NCBI GenBank assembly: GCA_963788655.1
Contig: CAWBHS010000027.1
Span: 41,645-105,644 of the forward strand
Source: an uncultured Verrucomicrobiae bacterium
Lineage (GTDB): Bacteria > Verrucomicrobiota > Verrucomicrobiia > Limisphaerales > JAFGQR01
Direction: 5' to 3'
Length of the DNA: 64,000 bases
This document shows positions 39,878 through 56,843 of this stretch, one piece after another; the stretch's first letter is position 1, and each line of letters opens with the position of its first letter. Below the pieces are notes generated by a model. That model did not search any database. It saw nothing but the letters and a program-made list of their open reading frames with translations, and had not been told where the DNA came from. The position numbers and the translations under genes were made by a program.

Positions 39878-42800
39878 TTACGGAATCAAGCGAGCCCGGT
39901 AAAAGGCGCCTGCTTTGTCGGGAGCGTTGGTAATGACGAAGCGCAGCCAACCGTCCTGCGGAACTATGTTGGTGCTCCCCGACACCCAGTGGAGAAGGTT
40001 GGTGCTTTTCTCGAGGGCGTAGCGTTGGCCGGCGGAACCCAGATAGGTGATGAACACGCCAGAATTGGTGGTGTTCAAGTCAACTGCTCTCGGAGATAGA
40101 CCCGTGTAAGTATAATATTCCAGGACGCTGGTGATGTGGTTGCAGGTGATCGTCAACGGCCGTTCGGCGGGCGCTAAATACCCCGGAATCGTACGGAACG
40201 CCAGATGGTAATTGGCCCCAACAGCCGGAAGTCCATAGGTCACCGTATCACTGAAATACGTCTGATTGGAATCTTCCGTGATACGCCAGCCCGCGCCCGC
40301 CGCCACAGCTTCCGGCGGACTGACGAAGACGTAAAACCCGCCCATTGGGTAATAATCGCATTCAACGGGAAATGGTATGGACACTCCATCTCCCAAACGG
40401 ATAACCCCGCCGCTGCCGCCAACGGGCACATAAACCTGCAAATCGTATTCACTCCCCGGACCATGCAGATCAGGACTGTAGGAACTGATGCGCAAGTAGT
40501 ACATGCCCGGCAGGAATCCGCTTTGCCCCGTCTTCAAGTCCACAATCAGTCGCTCCGTTATGTTTGAACCCGTCCCGCCTAATGGATCGTCCATGGAATC
40601 GACCCACACCAGACGACCGTTCGAGTGCTCATAATAGAGGTCAAGCACCAGGTCGCTATTGGTTCCCCTTTGCGTGGCGTCCAGATTGAATATCCATCCG
40701 GTGGGCGCATAGAACTTCACCCAGTCCTCGTCCGTGGAGGAATGGAAGTTGTGCCGCTGAGTCTCGTTCACATTAATGACTCTGGCTTGAGACGCGCTGT
40801 CGTCCACCTCATATGCGTCGGTAACGGTAATGGCCGATTGCGCTGGGCCGGACACCAAGCCGGTCTGGTTGCTGGCAAAAAAGGTGCAGGCGTACGTTCC
40901 CGGCATGGTAAAATTGGCGTAGGCAACCTGAAAACGGTTCGCCGGGGAATTCCAGGTCAGAGTGATTTGCGGCAGCTCGCCCTGACCGTCATAATCCGGC
41001 GGGGTGATGACGCACCAAACGTTGGAGCCACCCACCACCCCGGAAGCCCAAAGTTCCACCGGCATCCCGGCCACAACGGTTTGGTCGGGCATCACTTCGC
41101 TGATGAGCGGCAAATCGTCCCCGGTGACGAACGCGGCACCCAAGTAGCGGTGAGGGGCCAGCCTGCCATCCGAACCTTTCTGGTTGGCAATTCCGTCCCC
41201 GTTGTCGTCCAGTTGGGCCGCTTGCCGCACCTGTCCACTGGCAAACCGGACAGCGTCCCGCGCGGAAGTGAAAGCAGTGCCCAGGCTGTGACCATTCAAG
41301 ATGCTGTTGAGGAAAAACTGCGAAAAACTGATCAACCCGGCCGCGCCAAAGATACTCGGGCTGCCACTCGCGGTGCTGGCGATCACAATGCGTTCCCGTC
41401 CACTGGGCGCGGCCAGGTCCTTCACATAGTCGCCACTGCCGTCAAAATCCAGCATCACATTGACGCTCCGATTGGAAACTTGGAAGTGGTCGATCCAGAG
41501 GTCGAGTTGCGTCGCGGTCAGGGTTTGTTCAGGATTGAGTTGAAAATGCCCGTTCGTGGTCGCTCCCAGGCAATAAACCGTGAGCTTATCGGCGGTATCC
41601 GCCCAATTCGTGATTGCGAATCCCAGACTTTCCAGGCTGGGCAAACCCGCGACATTGTTGGTTCCGTCATCCAGGTCCTCCAACTCCACCGTGCTCAGGA
41701 CTTTGAGGTGATCCGCGGGCAGGCGTCGCAGGCGCAAGGTATGCCAGGCGTAACGTTCCAAGGCATTGAATGAAGCCCAGGAGGTCTCGTTGGTGTTCCC
41801 GGCAACGACCACGATGGCGCGTTCATCGAATCCGGTCTGGGTAATGAACGCTTGCCGCGGCAACGAGACGCTCTGCCGGACATCGCGGGCATAGTAGATC
41901 AGTTTGTAGGTCCCGGCTTGGATGAATCCGTCATAGGTGCCTTCGTAACGTCGGTTCAGGCTGTTGAACAGCAGTTCGACCTGCGGAACATCCTGGACGG
42001 GCTGGGAGGGATCAGGATCAAAACCGGGTGGCACAATCACACACCAAACCCGCTCGATGGCCGCCGGGCCTGAGACGTCGGCCGCCCAGAGTGTGCTAAC
42101 CGAAGTCGAGGTCAGCGTTTGATTCTCGCTGATGCGGCCAATCTGGGGAATGTCCACCCCAGCCACAGTCGATGCCCCCACGCTCACTAAAGTGGCATCT
42201 TGCCCATCCACTCCTTGGTGGAAAAGTCCGTCCCCCGTGTCATCGAGCAAGGCTTGTTGATAAATGCCAACCGCATTGGCCGCAAGTTGGAAGCAATCGT
42301 TCAGGTTCAAGCCTTGCAAGGCCCCACTCCAGAATGCATCCGAAAAGCTCACCAAGCCGTCTGCCAAAAAATAGGCTGGTTCATCGGCGGCACAAGCGGC
42401 GATAACGATTCGTTTTGCCGGGCCTGAGTTGGTGAGTTCACCCAGGAAGCTTCCCGAGTAGCAGCAGTCGATGACGACCGTCACGTCCATTGGGTAAGCG
42501 TCTTGCAGGGCGTCCAGCCGAGATATCCAGTTGAGCCGCCGTCAGCACCTCCGTCTCGTTCAACCGGAAGGTTGGTTGCCCGGAAGGTTTCTCGCCATGA
42601 TCCACCAAATACACGATCAATTGGCTGGCATTACCCACCCAGTTGGTGAAGGTCTGCGCCGCATTGGCCCAGGTCGTGGCCAGGGCCACGTCGTTGGTCA
42701 ATCCGTCGCCGTCCACATCCGTGTTAGTCACCGGGCTGAGGTATTGGATATCGGCTTTTCTGAATCCGCGATACCGCAATGTGTTATAGGCCAGGTCGGC

Positions 42801-46699: not shown

Positions 46700-46827
46700 G
46701 TTTCTACCCTATTGGCCAGTCCAAAAGTGGTGTTCCACGGCAGCAGCGGTTGTTGCCCGACGACGCCGACATCGCCAAGGCTCGGCGTGCGTCTCTTGAA
46801 AGTATGGAAATCCCGTTGCATCGCAGC

Positions 46828-49800
46828 TCAGAGATTCAACGTAAGGCGCGCATAGAACACCCGTCCGCGGGGGATACTCGGGGTGGTAGTTGAGCGGGCT
46901 GAAACTGTAATCCTGGTTCAACAGATTCATGAGTCCCAGAGTGAGATCACCGCGGCGATGAGGGAAACGGTAGCCGACAAACACGTTCAGCAATTGAAAA
47001 TCATCGCCCGGCGGTCCAGCCTTCGAACCATCAAGCTGCTGCAGGATTTCCCAAAAACCTCCACGGGCAAAAATACCGGACTGATCGTACCAGGTAGCCG
47101 TCAGCCCCCACTGATGCCAATCCGCCTCGGAGCGGATTGTGCGCTGGTAAGTGGGCGTAGCCGGAATGTCCGGTCGCGTCTGCTCGAGTTCGGATCGGGT
47201 GAATTGATACTCCGCGCCCAAAGCCCATTGGCGTCCCACGGTCTGGTTCAGAATGGCCCGCGCGTTGAACTCGCGGTAATTCAGGATTTCGCTGGTGCTA
47301 GCCTGTTCCGTGGTGCTTGGGAGGAAGTTGGCATGGAAGAGCCCCACTGCCTGATCCACCTTCTCCCGAAGGACTTCCCCTTGCAGGCTCAACCAGGCAT
47401 TTTTCCAGGGCCGGAGGTCGAACGCACCCCCGATAAGCTCATACCGGGGCGCTTCCACCGAACCCACGATGGACTCCGAGATCAGGGAGCGGAAGGACTG
47501 ATTGAACCCGGCGAGCTGGGTCGGTTCTAGCCGAACGCTGCCATCGTAACTCACTCCGCCGACGCCTTGGGCATAAGCGGTTCGGGCACGCAATCCGGAG
47601 GTAATGTCCCACAGCACGGCGCCCTTGGGGGAAACCTGGGACTGTTCCGACTGCTTGTTGTTCAGCGGTGGCCGGCGATAGTTGGCCGGATAGGTCAAGT
47701 CGTCGTAGGCCAGCCCACCGATGAGCATGAGGCCGTCCACGATTTCCCAGTGATGATAAGTGTAGAGCGAGAGCCGCTGGAAGTCCGTGTCAGTGGCAGA
47801 AGTTTCCGGCAGAGTCCACGGGAGTGAAGTTTGGGCGGGGTTGTCCAGCGACGCAATCGCTTCAAAGTGACCATCCTGATAGCGGGCACCGAGGATGTCC
47901 GTGTGGCGCTCGCGCTGGAACACCTGGTTCAGCTCGGCGGTGTAAGTAACGAACTTGCTTTGATAATTAACGTCAAACGGAATTGCCCGGGGATCGATCA
48001 TGTTGGGGGGATTAACGGTTGCGATGATCTGGCCGGCGGCCGTATCGCTCAACTTCTGATCATTCACCAACCGGCCGCCCAGGAACAGCGTATGAATGCC
48101 GGGGGACCATTCGTGATGCCAGCCGGCAAGGAGCATAGGCGCCTGCGTTTCTGAATAGTCAAAGTCCGGGCGAGCGAAACTAGCGTCGTAATACTGAAAA
48201 TTGTCGCCGGCCTGGTAATCCTGGTATTTGATCAGGGCGAGGGCGGAGTCGTTGGGAGTCACCTGGTATTTAAGCTGACTGTACCACTCGAGGCGGTTGA
48301 GTTCATTGTTGGGCCGCACGCCCTCGTTGTGCTGCCAGTCGAGGTCCAGTGAATAGCTGAAAGGGCCCACCGCTCCATATTGGGACGCGCGTTCGCGGTA
48401 TTGCCCATCGGTGCGCAGCTCGGAGGTTGTGGTCAGCCCCAACCGGTCGTGCGCAAAAAGCCGGGCATACTCCTGCTGGGAAACATTGGCCGAAATCGTG
48501 GGCACCCCTGGCGGGGCCTGTAAGTTGGCCAGCAGCAATTCGTTAAACCAGGGGGTTTCGTAACGCAGGTTGAACCGGGTGGGATCGCGCAGCGCATCGT
48601 AGCTTTGCGCCAGGAACAGGTGGGCCGAGTAGTTGGCATAGTCGTATTCCGTTGCACGGGCAGCCTCCCGCAGGCTGACATCATACAAACCCGCATCCCG
48701 GTAAATGGAAGCCAGATTGGCGCTCCTAACCGCCTGGTCCTGATCGAGGAGCAAGTGCGACCTGAAAAGGACACGGTTGGTATTCAGATCCTTTGACCGT
48801 CCGAGGTCGCTGATGGCTTCGTTGATGCGATTCTGTTCCTGTCGAAGCAAAGCCAGGTAAAGCCATGGCGTCGGATCTGCGGGATCCAGTTTGCTCGCGT
48901 AATTCAATTCCTTCTCGGCCAACCGGAGATCCCCAGCTTCGGTATATCCCTTGCCGAGATAGCTGCGTAGCAGAGCACGATCCGGCTCCAAGCCGGCTGC
49001 TGCTTGCAGATCCGCCAGCCACGCTTCCTGTCGGGGTGACGATCCGGCCTCGTGCGCTTGGAACCAGCCAAGACGACGCTCGCACAGGCCGCGGCCGAGC
49101 CAGGCGTTGCCGAGCGCGGAGTCCAACTGTATGGCCTCATTGAAGCAGCGGAGAGCATCCTTGATGTGGTTGTCGGCAGCCAGGAGAAAGCCCTTCAGCG
49201 CGTGCGCCTGCGCATTGCGTGGCGCGAACCGCAAGGCTTTTTCGACCGCCTCGCGAGCCGCCCGTGTATGGCCAAATCCAAATTCCAGCTCGGCCACCCG
49301 GGCCCACCCAAAGCCGAACCGAGGGGATTGCGCCACCGCCTCGCGGGCATCGCGCAAGGCCTGTTTGAGGTCATGCGCCGACTGATGCTGGTAGGAAAGA
49401 GCCAGCCATTCACTTGCGGAGCGTGATGCCGCGACAATCGCTGGAATCCCAACTCTCGAACCGCTCGGAATGTCTTTTCGCGACACGGCGGCAATCACGG
49501 TACGCAGTGCAATCGCGGCGGATAACGGCTGAGATAGCTTGCGCAACTGGGCCTCGGCTTCATCAACACTTCCCACCGCCAAGTGCAGCGCGGCCAGCAG
49601 CACCCGCTGGGCATCAGTGGTTGCCGGGCGCAACGTTGGATACCCTGGCCACGCTTTCAAGGCGCTCAGCAAGTCGCCCGCGCGATACGCATTCAGGCTC
49701 GCCTCTAGCAACGCCTGATCTTCCGGCAGTAGGCCAATTTCATCAGGATCCAGCACGCCGGGGTAATGAATCCACCATTGGACGATGTTCGTGGCCTGGA

Positions 49801-50519
49801 GCACCGGATGCACTTCAATAAGGAGACCTGGAACAACGATGCCCTGCTGTCCGCTACGAACCGTCTGGGTGTCCACGTCGTTGCTTACCTCAACCTCACC
49901 GTCAAACATAACAAACTCGGTGTGATCCTTTTCCACCACCACCAGAAATTCCGTTCCGTGTGGCGTGGCACGCGAGTGTGGTGTCTCGATGAGTGCTTGC
50001 GGAGATGGCAGCCGGCTGGAAACGCGCAGTTGTCCTTCCGTCACATATACGATGGGCTCGTTGGTGTTGGCGTTCGGGAAGCGAATCGCTCGCGGGTATG
50101 GCCGGCGACCGGGAACGCGCGCTTGTCTTCCAGTCATATAGACGACGAGTTCATTGGTGTCGGCGGACGGAATGTGAATCTCCAGCGTGGTCAACTGCTT
50201 GAGCATCAGTAGATTCTCGTCCAGGAATTTCACGGCGGCCCGGCTGTGCGCCAGCGTGCGCAGGGAGTCGCCGTTGATCAATTCCTTCACGGGCTTGGCT
50301 TCCGACTCGACGGTCAGACGTTGATGCCGGGCATGACCTTCTCGCTCGGGACATCTGGCCTGCCTGTTCACTGATCTCCACCTCATTGATGCTCACGGCG
50401 GCCCCATAGGTGTCCGGCGGCAGGCGCACCGCGGCGCATAGCAGGAGAACGCCGGCGAGTTTGACGGCTCCGGGCGCCCACCTGGGGGTGGGCATCTGTC
50501 GTCGCTGGTGAGAGTTCAT
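46828..50519 (-). CDS. FecR-domain + TPR + TonB-dependent-receptor-like beta-barrel protein (frameshifts ~50360 and ~46870)
   Basis: Signal peptide; ETPHSRATPHGTEF..FDGEVEV (FecR); multiple TPRs; barrel ending GLMNLLNQDY..RVFYARLTLNL*. Confidence 0.85.
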
Positions 50520-51359: not shown

Positions 51360-53004
51360 TTAGTCCCTTACCGGGAAAATCCTGTGCAAGAGGCGCAACC
51401 TATTTGAGGGTTTATGCGCTGGCGTTGGCCAACCCTGGGACGAGCAGGTGTTCCTTGAGTTTGAGTCCCACCAGCACCGCGCGCCGTCCCAGTTCCGTCA
51501 GGTAATACTTGTAGGTCTTGCCGGCTTTTTTGATTAATCCGTGCAGCCGCAGCCGCTTGAGGATTCGCCCGATCTGGCCGCTGCTCTTTCCCGGCAGCAC
51601 CGCTTGCAGCCGCCGGTTGCTCATCCCGCTGATTTGATACTCGCCGCGCACGATCCCCAGCAGCACCGTCAGATCGTGCCCGAGGAAAAAGTTGAACCCG
51701 CGCCAACTCCGCTCCCGTTCATCCGTCACTGGCCGGCTGATTTTATCCAAGTTGGTCGGCCCGCCGCTGCGGTCTTCCAACTCTCCGATAAACTCCAGAT
51801 ACCTTGCACAGCCGGCCCGCATCAACCCGGCCAGATCGCCCAGGCTGAAGATCGATTTCTTTAGGTCCGCCACCCGATAGTCGCTGCTGCCATCCCGATG
51901 TTCCACCTTGCGGTGGTGTCGATAGAAGCTCACGTCGTTGCTCACGCATTCCAGGCGCAGCACGCGTCCGGCCTGGTCATACATCTTGATCGCCTGCCGG
52001 TTGAGCTGGTGTTTGATGCGCGTGCCTTCGACGCGCGTATGAAAGTCGCTCTGCGCCTCAGCCTCCGGACTGAGCCGCTTATTCAGGAACCGGGCGATGT
52101 CCGGTGCCTTCACCGTGAAGATGGCCTGCCGGCTGATCTCCTGGTAAACCGGACGCAGGGCGGCGGCGCGCTTGAACACCACGTCCAGCGCATACTCCAC
52201 CTGCATGAGACTCCAGTGGTAGCCGCCGCGAAACTGTTTGACCACCGGGCAAAACTCCTCGGCCAGGGCGTGCAGGCGGGCCGCCAACACTCTTGATCTC
52301 GAAGCCCTCGACCAACGCCTGGGCCTTCGCCCAATCCCTGCAGGAGACAAACGTATTGTCGGCCAGCTCATGGGGGATGGCCGTGCGTGCGCAATTGATT
52401 GGCCAGCCAGGCGTGCTGGTTGAAGTAAACTTGCAGCCGGAAGGGCAGCCAGGTGGGCACGCGCATGTAACCCAGGCCCAACTGCTCGTCGATAAAATAG
52501 AAGTAGTAGTGCAGGCACCGTCCGCCCGTGAGCTTGAGTCCCGTCGCGCCCGGTCTTCTGGTCGTGCCAGGGCTTGAAACATTTGCACGATTCCATGGCG
52601 GAGAAGATGTGGACCAAGCCGGGATGCCGTCCGCGCTGTTCAAGAATCTCAGCGACCCGCGCTTCCTTGCGCAGCCCCTTACGTTCCAAATACTGGATTT
52701 CCAGACCGGCCTGACGGGCCAGCAGGATGGCGTTATCGCGCACCTGATCGCGCAAGGGTTCGGCGAAGACGCCCAGATCAAAGCAGCGGATATTCAGATG
52801 CCGAAGCTGGGCCGTCATGGCGTCGGGATGCCCCACATCGACGAGCATACCAGTGACAATGAGACGGTCGTAGCAGCCGAGCGTCCCCTCGATATCTTTG
52901 GCGTAACGGTCCAGCAGTTTGGATTGGAGATCACTGCCCGCTTTGATCGGTGCATTCATGCACCAACTTTACCCAAACTCTTGGTTCCGGCTACGCCGGG
53001 TTAG
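51360..53004 (-). mobile_element. IS-like element without TIRs, bounded by TTAG at both ends, with a terminal hairpin
   Basis: TTAG at 51360-51363 and 53001-53004; hairpin CCGGC-TAC-GCCGG directly inside the right TTAG; single ORF; abuts the WD40 remnant. Confidence 0.65.
51412..52959 (-). CDS. Putative non-DDE transposase/Rep-like protein with C-terminal winged HTH (compensating frameshifts ~52290-52550)
   Basis: GTLGCYDRL; CLHYYFYFID..LGLGYMRVPTWLPFRLQVYFNQH (alternate frame); QVEYALDVVF, IKMYDQ, LRLECVSND; wHTH LKRLRLHGLIKK...YKYYLTELG. Confidence 0.7.
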   Translation of the reverse strand: MNAPIKAGSDLQSKLLDRYAKDIEGTLGCYDRLIVTGMLVDVGHPDAMTAQLRHLNIRCFDLGVFAEPLRDQVRDNAILLARQAGLEIQYLERKGLRKEARVAEILEQRGRHPGLVHIFSAMESCKCFKPWHDQKTGRDGTQAHGRTVPALLLLFYRRAVGPGLHARAHLAALPAASLLQPARLAGQSIAHARPSPMSWPTIRLSPAGIGRRPRRWSRASRSRVLAARLHALAEEFCPVVKQFRGGYHWSLMQVEYALDVVFKRAAALRPVYQEISRQAIFTVKAPDIARFLNKRLSPEAEAQSDFHTRVEGTRIKHQLNRQAIKMYDQAGRVLRLECVSNDVSFYRHHRKVEHRDGSSDYRVADLKKSIFSLGDLAGLMRAGCARYLEFIGELEDRSGGPTNLDKISRPVTDERERSWRGFNFFLGHDLTVLLGIVRGEYQISGMSNRRLQAVLPGKSSGQIGRILKRLRLHGLIKKAGKTYKYYLTELGRRAVLVGLKLKEHLLVPGLANASA

Positions 53005-53022
53005 GATGACCAGCCGTGGAAG

Positions 53023-55377
53023 CTAATCTACTTTCGAGAGCACGAAAACCCGCGAGGCAAATGGGGGAATAATGCCAGAAAGCGTCAATTCGGCCTGTTC
53101 TCCGGTCAGCAGGTCGGTCGCTGCTTGGCCCCGCATGTCCTCGGGAATCTCGTACTGAAAACGCTTTTTCTCGGAGGCGTTGATGACGACGAAATAGGGG
53201 CCGTAGCGCAGCGTGTTCAGCCCCAGCGCTCCGCCTTGGGTGTCCACACAGATGGCCGTGACCAACCGGTTGATGGTGGGCGTCGTATACTCGAGACGAA
53301 CCACGCCGTTCGCTGTGCCTTTCGCCCAATCCCGGCCAAACCGGCTTTCCCAGTTCAGCGACGCGAACAGTCTCGCGTCCCCATGCCGCAAGGCGACGAG
53401 GCCCAGGTATTCATCCACCAACGCACTGTCTTCTCCCCGTTCGTCCGGCAACCGGTAATCCGTGGTTGGCAGGCTGGAGGCGCCGTCATCCTGGGCGTCA
53501 TTGGCCTTGGCCACCGCCAGCATGACCCGATCCCACAGGCCGCCCACCGATCTGAAGTTAAGACTCTCCAGTTTGTCCTGGGCGCGGCCATGTTCTTCCC
53601 GAAGCTCGAAATAGCGGATCGCAGCCGGTATCCGAAGCTCCTTGGCGGCATATTTCGAGAGAAAGTAACGTTCAAGCCCAGGAAAACCCCTCATGATGCG
53701 CGCACTGATCCATTCCGTATTGCGGAGTGTCCGGTAGCCCTCCGAATCATTGTCCAGGTAAACGAAGTGCGCGTATGACTCGAAAGCGGTCCGTGCCTTC
53801 TGCTCGATCTGGGGATAGCGCGTCAACTCCGCCACCTTGACCAACTGCAGCCCACCTTTGCCGTAGTTGGCGTCGTATCCGTCCTCCAGCGGCATTCCAT
53901 CCGGCGAATAGGAATAGGTGTCCCAGATGGGATTCCGGCGAATGCCCACGGCGATTTCAGCCAGCTCCTCCATCTGCCGGGCATGCGGCTTCGCCCACCG
54001 CGGATCGATGATCTTGATGACCTGGTAAACCGAGTTCAGAGCCAGAACATTGTGGATCATCTGATTGGCAATCGAACACTTCGCAACCTGCTTGGAATAA
54101 AGATCAAAACTGCGGCGCGCCATCCGGGTGTAGGCTTCGCGTCGGCTGACTTCGGGCGTGCTTGCATCCAGATCGTCATCGATGGATGCTTCCAAAAATC
54201 CCCCCTGGTCGAGATCCGGCAGCACCATCCTGAAACCATCCCAGAAGAATCGTTGTCCGACTTCAAGGCCAGGACTGAAGTTACTGCGATTGGGACCTCC
54301 CAGCCAAGTCGGCCAATTCACATCTTTGCCCGGCAGCGGACGCCCCATGAAGCCACCGCTATTGCCCTGGGCGCGACTGTAGAAATCAAATGCCGCAACA
54401 ATCCGTTCCAGCATTTCCCTATCCTGGTGGTAATCGGACCATTCCGCACAATAGGCGTGCGCAAACACCTCGATGAATCGCAAAGCAAGCATCTGGGAAT
54501 CGCCCTGACGAATATAGTGACCGCCCCAGCGTTTGATATCCTCCTTCAATACTTCATGGTCTTCCGTATAGGGGCCGCTCGGCGTGAACGAACCACGGCC
54601 CCGTCCCAAAAGGGCTCCCTTGGCCCACGACGGGACATTCTTCGCTTTCGCTGCTTCCCACCGCTCTCCGAACATTTGAAACTGCTTGGCTTTGCGAAAG
54701 CCGGCGTTGGCCTGCGCCTTCCAATGCTCGAAGCGATCCTTGGCCGACACCGTTTTCCCTTCCCGCGGCGGCCCCAGTTCGAACGGCTGGCCCTGAATCT
54801 CTCCGGCCGGCGGCTCAAAATAAGGCTCAAGATGCGTGTAGGCGCCATACACGTCGAGTCCGGGCGCGCGCCCTTTGTATAGAAGTCGAAGACGCACGGT
54901 GAATATCGCACGGGTCATCTTGAGCGGGATGGGATGGGTGGCGTAATAGAAACGACCGGGAAAGGCTCTCGCTTCCGTTTGTCGGACGATTTCACCCTTG
55001 CGGGGATGGTGGCTCGGTTTCAGCGGACCGTCCTGCCGTGCAATCGCGTCAAAGGGAGCATCGCCATGTTCAGGGTCGTGCAACACCAGTGAGCTTCCCG
55101 CGGAGCCGGAACTTCCCCAGACCTTCACCGTAAGATAATTCTGCTTCTTCGGATGACAGCCGAGTTCGAAATCGACGTGCTGATCATCGTCGGTAAAGCG
55201 AATAAACGGCTCCGCCAGGCCGAGTTCCTTACCGTCACTCGGGTTCAGATCGCTAAAACTACACTGACCCAGGATCGAGGATTCAGCTAAAGCGAGTTTT
55301 GGCGCGATCCAGAATGTGAACAGGGCCGCGGCCAAAACCGAAGCGCGCATTTTCCATTGGGCGGAGCGGGATTTCAT
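53023..55377 (-). CDS. Large secreted hypothetical protein (possible carbohydrate-active/lyase-like)
   Basis: Intact ~785-aa ORF with a signal peptide (ASVLAAALFTFWIAPKLALA); no family recognised with confidence. Confidence 0.75.
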   Translation of the reverse strand: MKSRSAQWKMRASVLAAALFTFWIAPKLALAESSILGQCSFSDLNPSDGKELGLAEPFIRFTDDDQHVDFELGCHPKKQNYLTVKVWGSSGSAGSSLVLHDPEHGDAPFDAIARQDGPLKPSHHPRKGEIVRQTEARAFPGRFYYATHPIPLKMTRAIFTVRLRLLYKGRAPGLDVYGAYTHLEPYFEPPAGEIQGQPFELGPPREGKTVSAKDRFEHWKAQANAGFRKAKQFQMFGERWEAAKAKNVPSWAKGALLGRGRGSFTPSGPYTEDHEVLKEDIKRWGGHYIRQGDSQMLALRFIEVFAHAYCAEWSDYHQDREMLERIVAAFDFYSRAQGNSGGFMGRPLPGKDVNWPTWLGGPNRSNFSPGLEVGQRFFWDGFRMVLPDLDQGGFLEASIDDDLDASTPEVSRREAYTRMARRSFDLYSKQVAKCSIANQMIHNVLALNSVYQVIKIIDPRWAKPHARQMEELAEIAVGIRRNPIWDTYSYSPDGMPLEDGYDANYGKGGLQLVKVAELTRYPQIEQKARTAFESYAHFVYLDNDSEGYRTLRNTEWISARIMRGFPGLERYFLSKYAAKELRIPAAIRYFELREEHGRAQDKLESLNFRSVGGLWDRVMLAVAKANDAQDDGASSLPTTDYRLPDERGEDSALVDEYLGLVALRHGDARLFASLNWESRFGRDWAKGTANGVVRLEYTTPTINRLVTAICVDTQGGALGLNTLRYGPYFVVINASEKKRFQYEIPEDMRGQAATDLLTGEQAELTLSGIIPPFASRVFVLSKVD

Positions 55378-55411
55378 CGGTCTGTTAAGTATCGATCCGA
55401 GGGGAACGCGC

Positions 55412-55585
55412 TCACCAGGAGTTGGCGGGACTGATATCCCACGCATCCAGCGACCGCACGTTCACGCTGCCACCGCGCGCGACGAGCGCGACGCCCAGAC
55501 TGTCGGCGCGCGACGGGTAGATGCCCACGGGCAGGATGAGGATTGCCGAAAGCAGCAAGAGCGTTGGAACGAGGTGGCGTTTCAT
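55412..55585 (-). pseudogene. Signal peptide fused to the extreme C-terminus of a GH32-like enzyme (internal deletion remnant)
   Basis: Translated by hand: [57 protein letters not shown]. Confidence 0.55.
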
Positions 55586-55937
55586 GATGTGCCGCCTACG
55601 GTGCAGGATGGCGAACTCCGCGTCGAGGATTTAAGATCCCAGCCCCGGTCGGCCACCTGGGACTTGGTGCTTACGAACCCATCCGGCTCGGCTGCTGATC
55701 CTTCCTGCGTGCAGCGGCGCATTGCCGGAGCCGAAACCTATATTCTCTCTGGCCAGGAGAAATACGCGAATGTGCTGAAATGAAAAGGAATGTCTGGAAC
55801 ACCAGTCCGCTGGTTAACATCATCGGCGATGTGCCCAGCGAAACTCGGATGCCGCCAGTGGGTGGTTCGTCGATTCAAATTCCGAAAAACGGCAACTGGG
55901 CGTGGCCGATCCAGCGCAGTTCTGATAGAGAACCAAC

Positions 55938-56843
55938 ATGAAAAGTTCAACACGTTGCACGATGAGCCTAAACTCAAAGTCACGACCATGGCTGCCGTCG
56001 GTTCTTTACAACGGCATCAGTGTCAGCGAAACGGCCCGCAAGACGTTTCTGCTCCGCAATGAATTTGATCATGTGGATAACCCGATCATGGACCGTGGCT
56101 CGCAAACGCTGCTTCAGGGCAACAAGCTGAGTGGCCCAAAAAAGGGAAATAGCGAGCCACCCGCGTTGGCCGACGGACGCAACGAACGCAGCCTGCCCGC
56201 GTGGCGGCCAAAAGGCTGGACGCCTGATCCATCGGCGCAATTACCACCCCTATTCCATGACGTGCTGGCTCTGAAAGTTTTGGTTTCGCAACCCGTGTAT
56301 TGCTACGCGCACGACAGCCAGAGCGAAGCGGGCCAGGCCGAGTGCGCCTCCAACCTGAAGAACCTGTTCGACCTCATCAAGGGGTACGACGCCAAGCACG
56401 GCCACCTGCCCAAGGCCGCGTTTTTCCCAGAGCAGCCCTTGACGAGCCCCGACAGCCTGTGCGCGCTTTTGATCGGCTTCCTCGCCTCCACCGGGGCAGA
56501 GAGTCGGGGTGAGGGGGCAACGGAAATCACCGGCCAGAAAAAGGCGGCACTGTTCACCTGCCCAACCTGCAGCCCGGACCTGCAGGCTTTCGGTTTGAAC
56601 TATGTCTGGAACCAACAGCTCAATGGCGAACGGCTCGCCGACATCGAAGATCCTGCAAACACCTGGCTGCTGATGGACTTCGTGGGCGCGCACGATTGGA
56701 TGGTCAACAACGGGTATTGCGGCCACCGGCGCGGGGTGGACATCCTCTACGCCGACGGCACTGTGAAATGGAGCCGTCCCTTTTCGACCGAGGCCTGGAA
56801 CCAAGATGCCCCCCAGGGATGGTTGAAGTGGGCCCTGGAGTGA
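55938..56843 (+). CDS. H-X9-DG domain protein lacking a prepilin leader (probable 5'-truncated or chimeric gene)
   Basis: CASNLKNL, LFTCP, NYVWN, HRRGVDILYADGTV. Confidence 0.65.
   Translation: MKSSTRCTMSLNSKSRPWLPSVLYNGISVSETARKTFLLRNEFDHVDNPIMDRGSQTLLQGNKLSGPKKGNSEPPALADGRNERSLPAWRPKGWTPDPSAQLPPLFHDVLALKVLVSQPVYCYAHDSQSEAGQAECASNLKNLFDLIKGYDAKHGHLPKAAFFPEQPLTSPDSLCALLIGFLASTGAESRGEGATEITGQKKAALFTCPTCSPDLQAFGLNYVWNQQLNGERLADIEDPANTWLLMDFVGAHDWMVNNGYCGHRRGVDILYADGTVKWSRPFSTEAWNQDAPQGWLKWALE

Follow-up and report, generated by a model that had tools for sequence, protein, structure and literature searches.

To our knowledge, Rep_trans enzymes have been described only in the replication of plasmids and phages and in conjugation. 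Previous studies, in the sections consulted, described a nucleophilic tyrosine (Y191 of RepD) between R189 and K193, with a preceding T-x-Y-x-G, and three carboxylates (D46, D142 and E214), each on a separate strand of a TATA-binding protein (TBP)-like sheet (PMC4797284), and listed the motifs of these enzymes as N' (D), I (RxD), II (T/SxY/ExG), III (YxKxxE) and IV (W/LxRxE) (PMC5714925). The transposons that use tyrosine-nuclease single-strand or rolling-circle chemistry, namely IS200/IS605, IS91/ISCR, Helitrons and Replitrons, are all of the HUH type in the consulted parts of the literature (10.1101/2022.12.15.520654, PMC10288648, PMC5714925), and the parts consulted of PMC13107129 and PMC5714925 describe no Rep_trans protein as a transposase. 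Here we analyzed a window of 64,000 nt, the whole stretch from position 41,645 to 105,644 of the forward strand of contig CAWBHS010000027.1 (C27) in assembly GCA_963788655.1, which carries a 1,641-bp element with a single gene on its minus strand (51361..53001). We presume, with a probability of roughly 0.55, that the element is a decayed copy of a new insertion sequence (IS) family which encodes a putative Rep_trans-type tyrosine nuclease and moves by a single-strand or rolling-circle route. It would be an even bet, judged from sequence comparisons, that here, for the first time, a Rep_trans/TBP-fold tyrosine nuclease drives a group of transposons. Single-strand or rolling-circle transposition would then have been invented a second time, independently of HUH enzymes, and the family, with miniature elements of its own and one universal target of 4-5 nt (CCTA), would extend over most bacterial phyla.

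The assembly comprises 8.96 Mb in 115 contigs (bin contamination 5.6%), and BLAST located exactly three copies of the element in it, the window copy on C27, one on C7 (99% identity) and one on C100 (96% identity), with zero solo ends. When the three copies were aligned together with their flanks they had the same first and last bases, which lie within 1-3 nt of 51360 and 53004, and all three were preceded by TCCTA. Read in the orientation of the gene, the element extends from an A before a hairpin to a terminal ..GGGACTA, as delimited by this alignment and by BLAST, and the target pentamer TCCTA in the flank (53002..53006, minus strand; TAGGA on the plus strand) abuts the gene-upstream, or left, end. 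The conserved left end (A-CCCGG-loop-CCGGAACCAA.., 52976..53001, minus strand), recognized from the motif in relatives and short derivatives and from folding, includes the hairpin CCGGC-TAC-GCCGG (52987-52999), and the conserved right end (51361..51388, minus strand) reads ..GCACAGGATTTTCCCGGTAAGGGACTA with the terminus ACTA. Between the two ends lies the gene for an enzyme of about 515 aa (51412..52959, minus strand; frame-broken in this copy), with 42 non-coding nt from the left terminus to the ATG. Coverage by related-element contigs from four metagenome runs was confined to 51360..53005-53009, and none of the sequencing runs contained the original locus (best share 0.14). For the 71-nt left end, folding gave -13.8 kcal/mol (z -3.4); at the right end the sequence is conserved and a hairpin is not (folding z -0.9), and the left hairpin is without covariation because its stem is constant and its loop variable. 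The Rfam scan gave zero matches inside the element, and a promoter scan found none. The sequence-only reading had taken 51360-53004 for an unclassified IS-like mobile element without terminal inverted repeats, and both points agree with our results: the three copies have coinciding ends, relatives are multi-copy in other genomes, and none of the 25 longest among 96 inverted pairs links both termini. The hairpin that it had placed just inside the right-hand TTAG is also there, as part of a left-end motif present in 66/80 related loci.

Across the family the layout in gene orientation is flank-(C/T)CCTA, A-CCCGG-(3-5 nt)-CCGGAACCAA(A/G).., gene, ..GGTAAGGGACTA (or ..AGAGGTACTA), N, and sets of identical copies in single genomes (5, 6, 3, 2 and 2 copies) have conserved blocks of 1,633-1,702 bp. 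Among 60 distinct flanks, positions -5 to -1 were C58, C59, T58, A60 and A60; the right end was located in 44 of the 66 loci with the left-end motif, and the base after ACTA (A33, C5, G2 and T3 in 43 distinct flanks) varies even between otherwise identical copies. CTA stands at both junctions of 60 distinct insertions, while the fourth base is the element's own at the gene-upstream end and the flank's at the other. Since the base after the right terminus varies, the repeated core is CTA and the A beyond the left-junction CTA belongs to the element; therefore, with CTA (TAG on the plus strand) and not TTAG as the shared core, the element of the window is 51361..53001. The TTAG boundaries proposed earlier held as positions, TTAG standing at 51360-51363 and 53001-53004 where the copy ends map, and gave way to CTA as the core; the limits 51360-53004 given earlier take in the ambiguous core bases as well. 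At two loci the right end abuts the left end of another copy with a single CTAA (..GGGACTA-ACCCGG..), and at locus L078 the abutting copy differs in sequence. These two loci supply both A's at position -5, the only ones, so that the ACTA terminus can itself be a target, and they are tandem insertions, not wrapped circles. The target is identical across clades with about 50% protein identity. The element is thus multi-copy, with two unlike conserved ends of about 26 nt each, one gene and orientation-specific insertion directly 3' of CCTA. We also observed that short tandem arrays containing the target adjoin some insertions, one of CTACATCCTAA at the C100 copy and CTAATAC-type repeats at Sedimentisphaerales copies.

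An identical core at both junctions, the right-end/left-end junctions, strict target specificity and the lack of inverted repeats would also be expected of a site-specific integrating circle whose crossover lies in the 3-nt core CTA and which is served by a novel recombinase acting in the manner of IS110/IS1111 or of tyrosine or serine recombinases. Indeed, IS110/IS1111 elements (DEDD, bridge or seek RNA) resemble the family in having no inverted repeats, in being site-specific and in the short core at both junctions; they differ in that the family has no DEDD domains, non-coding ends of only tens of nt and one universal target. We consider such a circle improbable: DEDD, integrase and resolvase models were unmatched, the non-coding left end is short, there was no Rfam match, and a single target serves all clades, whereas RNA-guided IS110-type elements, in the part of the source consulted, each pick their own site (PMC11187229).

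The family is very widespread. Of 8,000 candidates scored in a similarity search, at least 4,737 were relatives; among the matches listed, 120/120 had no Pfam domain, those with a name were called 'hypothetical protein', and the contigs of most were 1.6-2.3 kb long. Searching 1.84 billion representatives with a profile gave 9,814 matches at E<=0.001 and 1,169 at E<=1e-30, and the species-representative genomes contained at least 562 relative-encoding stretches among at least 600 pattern matches. The frame was open over at least 470 aa in 73/80 loci, and several genomes had 3-7 copies of identical score. Host labels included Verrucomicrobiota, Acidobacteriota, Nitrospirota, Planctomycetota, Chloroflexota, Gemmatimonadota, Pseudomonadota, Bacteroidota and others (at least 13 phylum labels), and in the phylum of the present genome the family was found in 4/201 genomes only. 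A quick tree required 23 changes among the 13 phylum labels, where 12 would be the minimum; bins with different labels contain near-identical proteins, and mis-binning may contribute to this pattern. A search of the full-text literature found no description of the family, ISfinder and subscription journals lying outside that search.

The many members on short contigs, together with the Rep_trans-like motifs and the hairpin beside the putative nick site, would suit a rolling-circle replicon of minimal size (plasmid or satellite) able to integrate, with the protein primarily as replication initiator, the hairpin end as origin and the chromosomal copies as integrated forms, and the archaeal Rep-Arvir proteins discussed below offer a precedent of an initiator with a winged helix. 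This is nevertheless quite improbable, because the short contigs examined have chromosomal flanks on both sides, the end-to-end junctions are tandem insertions, and multiple identical chromosomal copies stand at different CCTA sites. Moreover, there were 0 relatives among 63 candidates from viral contigs and zero matches to the family in phage records, and in plasmid records the family member sits inside very large plasmids as an insertion.

Using a pattern of the two end motifs, we found miniature derivatives in 31 metagenome stretches (22 distinct sites), which are 119-139 bp long and non-coding. They share the left end of the full element, hairpin included, and its right end; CCTA precedes 18 of the 22 sites, the base after the element varies, and the unlike conserved ends of about 26 nt suffice in these miniatures. 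Rfam gave only sub-threshold chance matches on them. The family is best explained as a large, so far undescribed bacterial insertion sequence family with miniature non-autonomous derivatives. In at least 12 of the 31 stretches a second repeat of about 150 nt stands directly after the miniature's right end (noted at L109, L111, L114, L115, L117-L119, L121-L123, L125, L130, L131 and L133); a hairpin (CTTTTTCCGCG..CGCGGAAAAAG) stands at its start and ..GCGCTAAGCGCCTA at its end, beyond which the flank varies. L109 and L120 have a common upstream flank and differ in the presence of this second repeat, which may be another small element using CTA sites.

We characterized the enzyme from 89 divergent members with 25-47% identity, numbering residues according to family protein P0002. 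D31, R32, G114, Y152, Y154, G161, P172, N180, N201, E254, Y326, R334 and E336 were invariant, and K98, E123, R166, G311, K324, K328 and R349 were kept in at least 90%. The plasmid homologues of Rhodococcus, Burkholderia and Mycobacterium, at 24-29% identity, retain D31-R32, E254, K-x-Y326-x-K and R334-x-E336, and not D258. In the window (all on the minus strand), CYDRL with the invariant D31-R32, a candidate equivalent of Rep_trans motif N', lies at 52861..52875; QVEYALD, whose E254 is invariant even in the distant clade where D258 is lost, at 52183..52203; and IKMYDQ..LRLE, with K-x-Y326-x-K followed by R334-x-E336 as candidate catalytic tyrosine strand and third metal ligand, at 51949..51990. 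A C-terminal MarR/ArsR-like winged helix-turn-helix (51475..51582), supported by Pfam and PDB matches, occupies the last 70 or so of about 515 residues: HVO_A0261_N matched 37/89 members, HTH_45 14/89 and MarR 5/89, and the PDB sequence search returned the MarR chain 3bj6_A (E 0.013) and otherwise only winged-helix chains of the MarR type and noise. Pfam and NCBIfam found no family beyond this winged helix in the 89 members, none of which (0/89) matched any IS transposase model, and zero homologues matched the HUH/Y1 (PF01797), Y2 HUH, DEDD, integrase or resolvase models; in the Protein Atlas only unnamed 'hypothetical' clusters were found, and residues 1-420 had no named cluster.

The sequence-only reading had warned that such proteins would readily be mislabelled as MarR regulators, and indeed a homologue on a Paraburkholderia plasmid carries the annotation 'ArsR family transcriptional regulator', owing to a C-terminal helix that passes the HTH_5 cut-off. 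That label, and the single homologue passing HTH_5, are what would favour an ordinary ArsR/MarR transcription factor gene lying in repeated DNA, which we regard as practically negligible: the winged helix is only a small part of the protein, and the unit is multi-copy, with fixed ends, a fixed target and miniature derivatives. A stand-alone ArsR/MarR regulator was likewise rejected as a candidate, the gene being the sole cargo of a multi-copy element.

We then compared the remaining N-terminal part with Rep_trans/MOBT proteins (pT181 RepC/RepD, RepSTK1, ICEBs1 NicK; PF02486). Two genuine Rep_trans proteins read SIDRITLL, RIDIAID, RIYDK and WRIELE, and CYDRLIIT, QVEYALD, KMYDK and LRIE of the family follow in the same order. 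Four of the five Rep_trans motifs have counterparts, in order, among the invariant residues, namely N' (D), III (YxK), IV (RxE) and, more loosely, I; D31(-R32), E254 and R334-x-E336 come in the order of the Rep_trans metal ligands. Motif III agrees at motif level: Y326 is invariant, K324, K328 and G311 are kept in at least 90%, and hhalign sets KMYDK on RIYDK. Both groups share the order and nature of the conserved residues, namely D(R), an acidic residue on an alternating strand, G..(K/R)-x-Y-x-K and (L/W)-R-x-E, and both have a hairpin at the presumed nick region; they differ in that the family has an insert of about 80 residues between the motif blocks and a spacing of 8 residues from the tyrosine to RxE, versus 15-22 in Rep_trans. 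In hhalign, family residues 1-70 scored 17.5 against the Rep_trans N-terminus (10 controls 5.4-9.0) and residues 235-350 scored 23.3 against the Rep_trans catalytic strands (7 controls 8.1-14.8), with both alignments superposing the named motifs, the P-values being optimistic because the segments were picked after the motifs had been seen, which is the first of several points that weigh against the Rep_trans reading.

The whole-length hhalign comparison with Rep_trans gave a probability of 1.6% (E 0.032), and the core alone 4% with a score of 25.9 versus 13.2-21.0 in 9 nulls; broadening the Rep_trans alignment added only 7 new sequences. Profile comparison gave no signal for the middle Rep_trans block (RxExNP), motif I reads Q-x-E and not R-x-D, motif II fits poorly and motif III is without the trailing E. 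The Pfam model Rep_trans (PF02486) had 0 matches in 7 intact homologues at E<=5 and in the 89 members at E<=1, and zero in the present genome at E<=10, where the copies are frame-broken; the same search recovered true Rep_trans proteins in 2/151 genomes of the same phylum. Further, neither a circle junction nor a single-stranded intermediate was observed, nor an empty site in a close relative, and the miniature pattern gave 0 matches in five genomes carrying the full element. Strand bias is typical of IS200/IS605, whereas one 3.1-Mb contig has seven copies of the family that alternate in direction within 100 kb and show no bias, which weighs against a strictly lagging-strand, IS200/IS605-like mode. 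Finally, CTA at both junctions fits an uncopied target cut 3' of CTA and a 3-bp duplication equally. The statistical support for Rep_trans likeness is modest: the earlier proposal that QVEYALD, IKMYDQ and LRLE echo Rep_trans motifs was borne out in that these strings fall on invariant residues and two segment profiles exceed their controls, and was not borne out by the Pfam model or by the whole-length and core alignments.

The 3-bp duplication belongs to the alternative that the enzyme falls, unrecognised, into a known catalytic class, for example as a very divergent RNase-H-like DDE enzyme, or has a wholly new fold, and that it makes staggered cuts and duplicates CTA. CTA does flank every insertion as such a duplication would give, the conserved acidic residues D31, E123, E254 and E336 exist, and the copies are without orientation bias. 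Cut-and-paste enzymes normally bind two like ends, however, and here the ends are unlike and there are no terminal inverted repeats; 89 divergent members match no Pfam or NCBIfam transposase model, and an invariant tyrosine in K-x-Y-x-K stands beside R-x-E. We therefore think this alternative rather unlikely.

The Rep_trans reading has a parallel in the archaeal Rep-Arvir proteins (RepSNJ2, DUF7845/PF25227), which, in the sections consulted, combine a Rep_trans-like domain with a MarR-like winged helix, as the family would, are often annotated as regulators, and have a kinship to Rep_trans that is detectable only by structure; unlike the family, they are archaeal and act as replication initiators of viruses and plasmids (PMC13107129). 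PF25227 was unmatched in our Pfam scans of the family proteins.

Among transposons, the IS200/IS605 elements (TnpA Y1 HUH; IS608, ISDra2) are similar to the family in their unlike ends without inverted repeats, in inserting in one orientation directly 3' of a fixed target of 4-5 nt adjoining the left end, in a right terminus resembling the target, and in an end-proximal hairpin, small size and miniatures. The family differs from them in having no HUH/Y1 domain, a protein about three times larger with a winged helix, only the left hairpin conserved, and no orientation bias in the one genome with seven copies. IS91/ISCR elements (Y2 HUH) share with it the lack of inverted repeats, the apparent lack of a classical duplication, a tetranucleotide target at one end, and a possible read-through unit of 7,458 bp on a Burkholderia plasmid; unlike them, the family has no HUH motif or Y2 model, and one candidate tyrosine strand in place of a Y-x3-Y helix. 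That unit occurs twice, 100% identical and with passenger genes (L101/L102), on the Burkholderia sp. YI23 plasmid CP003090.1; both units start with CTAA (CTAACGAGG..), which lies 156 nt upstream of the gene for a homologue with 29% identity, and their right end (..GGAACGGGG) is unlike ACTA. This single case may reflect right-end read-through or one-ended transposition, or a plain segmental duplication. On a Mycobacterium riyadhense plasmid (L098), adjacent genes of 538 aa and 553 aa are both distant homologues, the second without Y152, Y154 and E123, and IS4 transposase genes adjoin them.

On the Rep_trans reading, we predict that the N-terminal 430 or so residues form a tyrosine nuclease of the Rep_trans type (pT181 RepC/RepD, TBP-like fold) and not an HUH, DDE, DEDD or recombinase enzyme, in which Tyr326 of K-x-Y-x-K would be the nucleophile, D31, E254 and E336 would hold the metal, and the winged helix would read the conserved ends. 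Acting probably as a dimer, the enzyme would cut a single strand 3' of CTA, once where the flank meets the left end and once at the right terminus, and would remain linked to the 5' phosphate (5'-phosphotyrosine intermediate); a single-stranded or circular intermediate with the junction ..GGGACTA-ACCCGG.. would then be released and rejoined 3' of CCTA in a new target, either by an IS200/IS605-like peel-and-paste route or replicatively, as in IS91 rolling-circle transposition. If this is true, the family would represent a new transposase class, an IS family with a Rep_trans-like enzyme that spans phyla, and would explain thousands of mislabelled 'regulators' now hidden under 'hypothetical protein' or 'ArsR/MarR regulator' labels; it could also be the source of the enzyme that abundant miniature repeats with a CCTA target lack, and would offer a small, sequence-specific system for DNA insertion that needs one protein and has a defined target of 4-5 nt. 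Whatever the fold, a very abundant IS family has been overlooked by current annotation pipelines.

When characterizing the window copy itself, we found that the 515-aa open reading frame on the minus strand (51412..52959), which the sequence-only reading had reported as one ORF of about 515 aa, is present there and is open by accident only. In comparison with homologues the copy has three extra single bases near 52546, 52379 and 52292, and relatives from metagenome contigs have one base fewer at each of these places; residues of about 138-223 are consequently out of frame (52292..52546, minus strand), a stretch which covers the invariant Y152, Y154, G161, P172, N180 and N201, and the true peptide (..CLHYYFYFIDEQLGLGYMRVPTWLPFRLQVYFN..) has to be read from the other two frames. 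The copies on C7 and C100 are likewise frame-broken, at different places, so that, judged as assembled, the window copy and its two sisters would yield no enzyme. Indels are unusually frequent relative to substitutions among these copies (5 indel events vs 7 substitutions; 22 vs 49), and the flanking genes are intact; consensus errors in repeats are as likely as decay to account for the frameshifts.

The uninterrupted insertion site was sought in several places. A paralogous segment on contig C75 (3,029 bp, including an 807-aa gene of no known family) is 91% identical to window 53001-56005 and runs uninterrupted as ..CATACTAAT.. where the window has the insertion, and therefore CTA pre-exists in the target. 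The similarity ends within a few bases of the insertion point, and the segment is not a clean empty site because its other flank differs; it could be a paralogous gene copy or come from a second strain in the bin. Beyond the insertion point, C75 carries a convergent apiosidase-like gene. Among 30 relatives of the genome, none had synteny with the window flanks, and for the Paraburkholderia plasmid copy the flank match in another plasmid stops 130 nt short of the insertion and gives no empty site. The check for an empty site thus yielded the uninterrupted sequence with only one flank in common and no clean site. The earlier suggestion of a clean insertion into a WD40 gene was not upheld, as the fragment in question is 28 aa long and without Pfam match, and its continuation upstream is the 3' end of the 807-aa gene read in another frame.

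Eukaryotic telomere repeats have a C-strand unit identical to the preferred target, CCCTAA/TCCTAA, most likely by coincidence. Elsewhere in the window, the minus strand at 46709-50386 encodes a 1,225-aa protein with FecR, TPR and TonB-dependent-receptor-like barrel domains.

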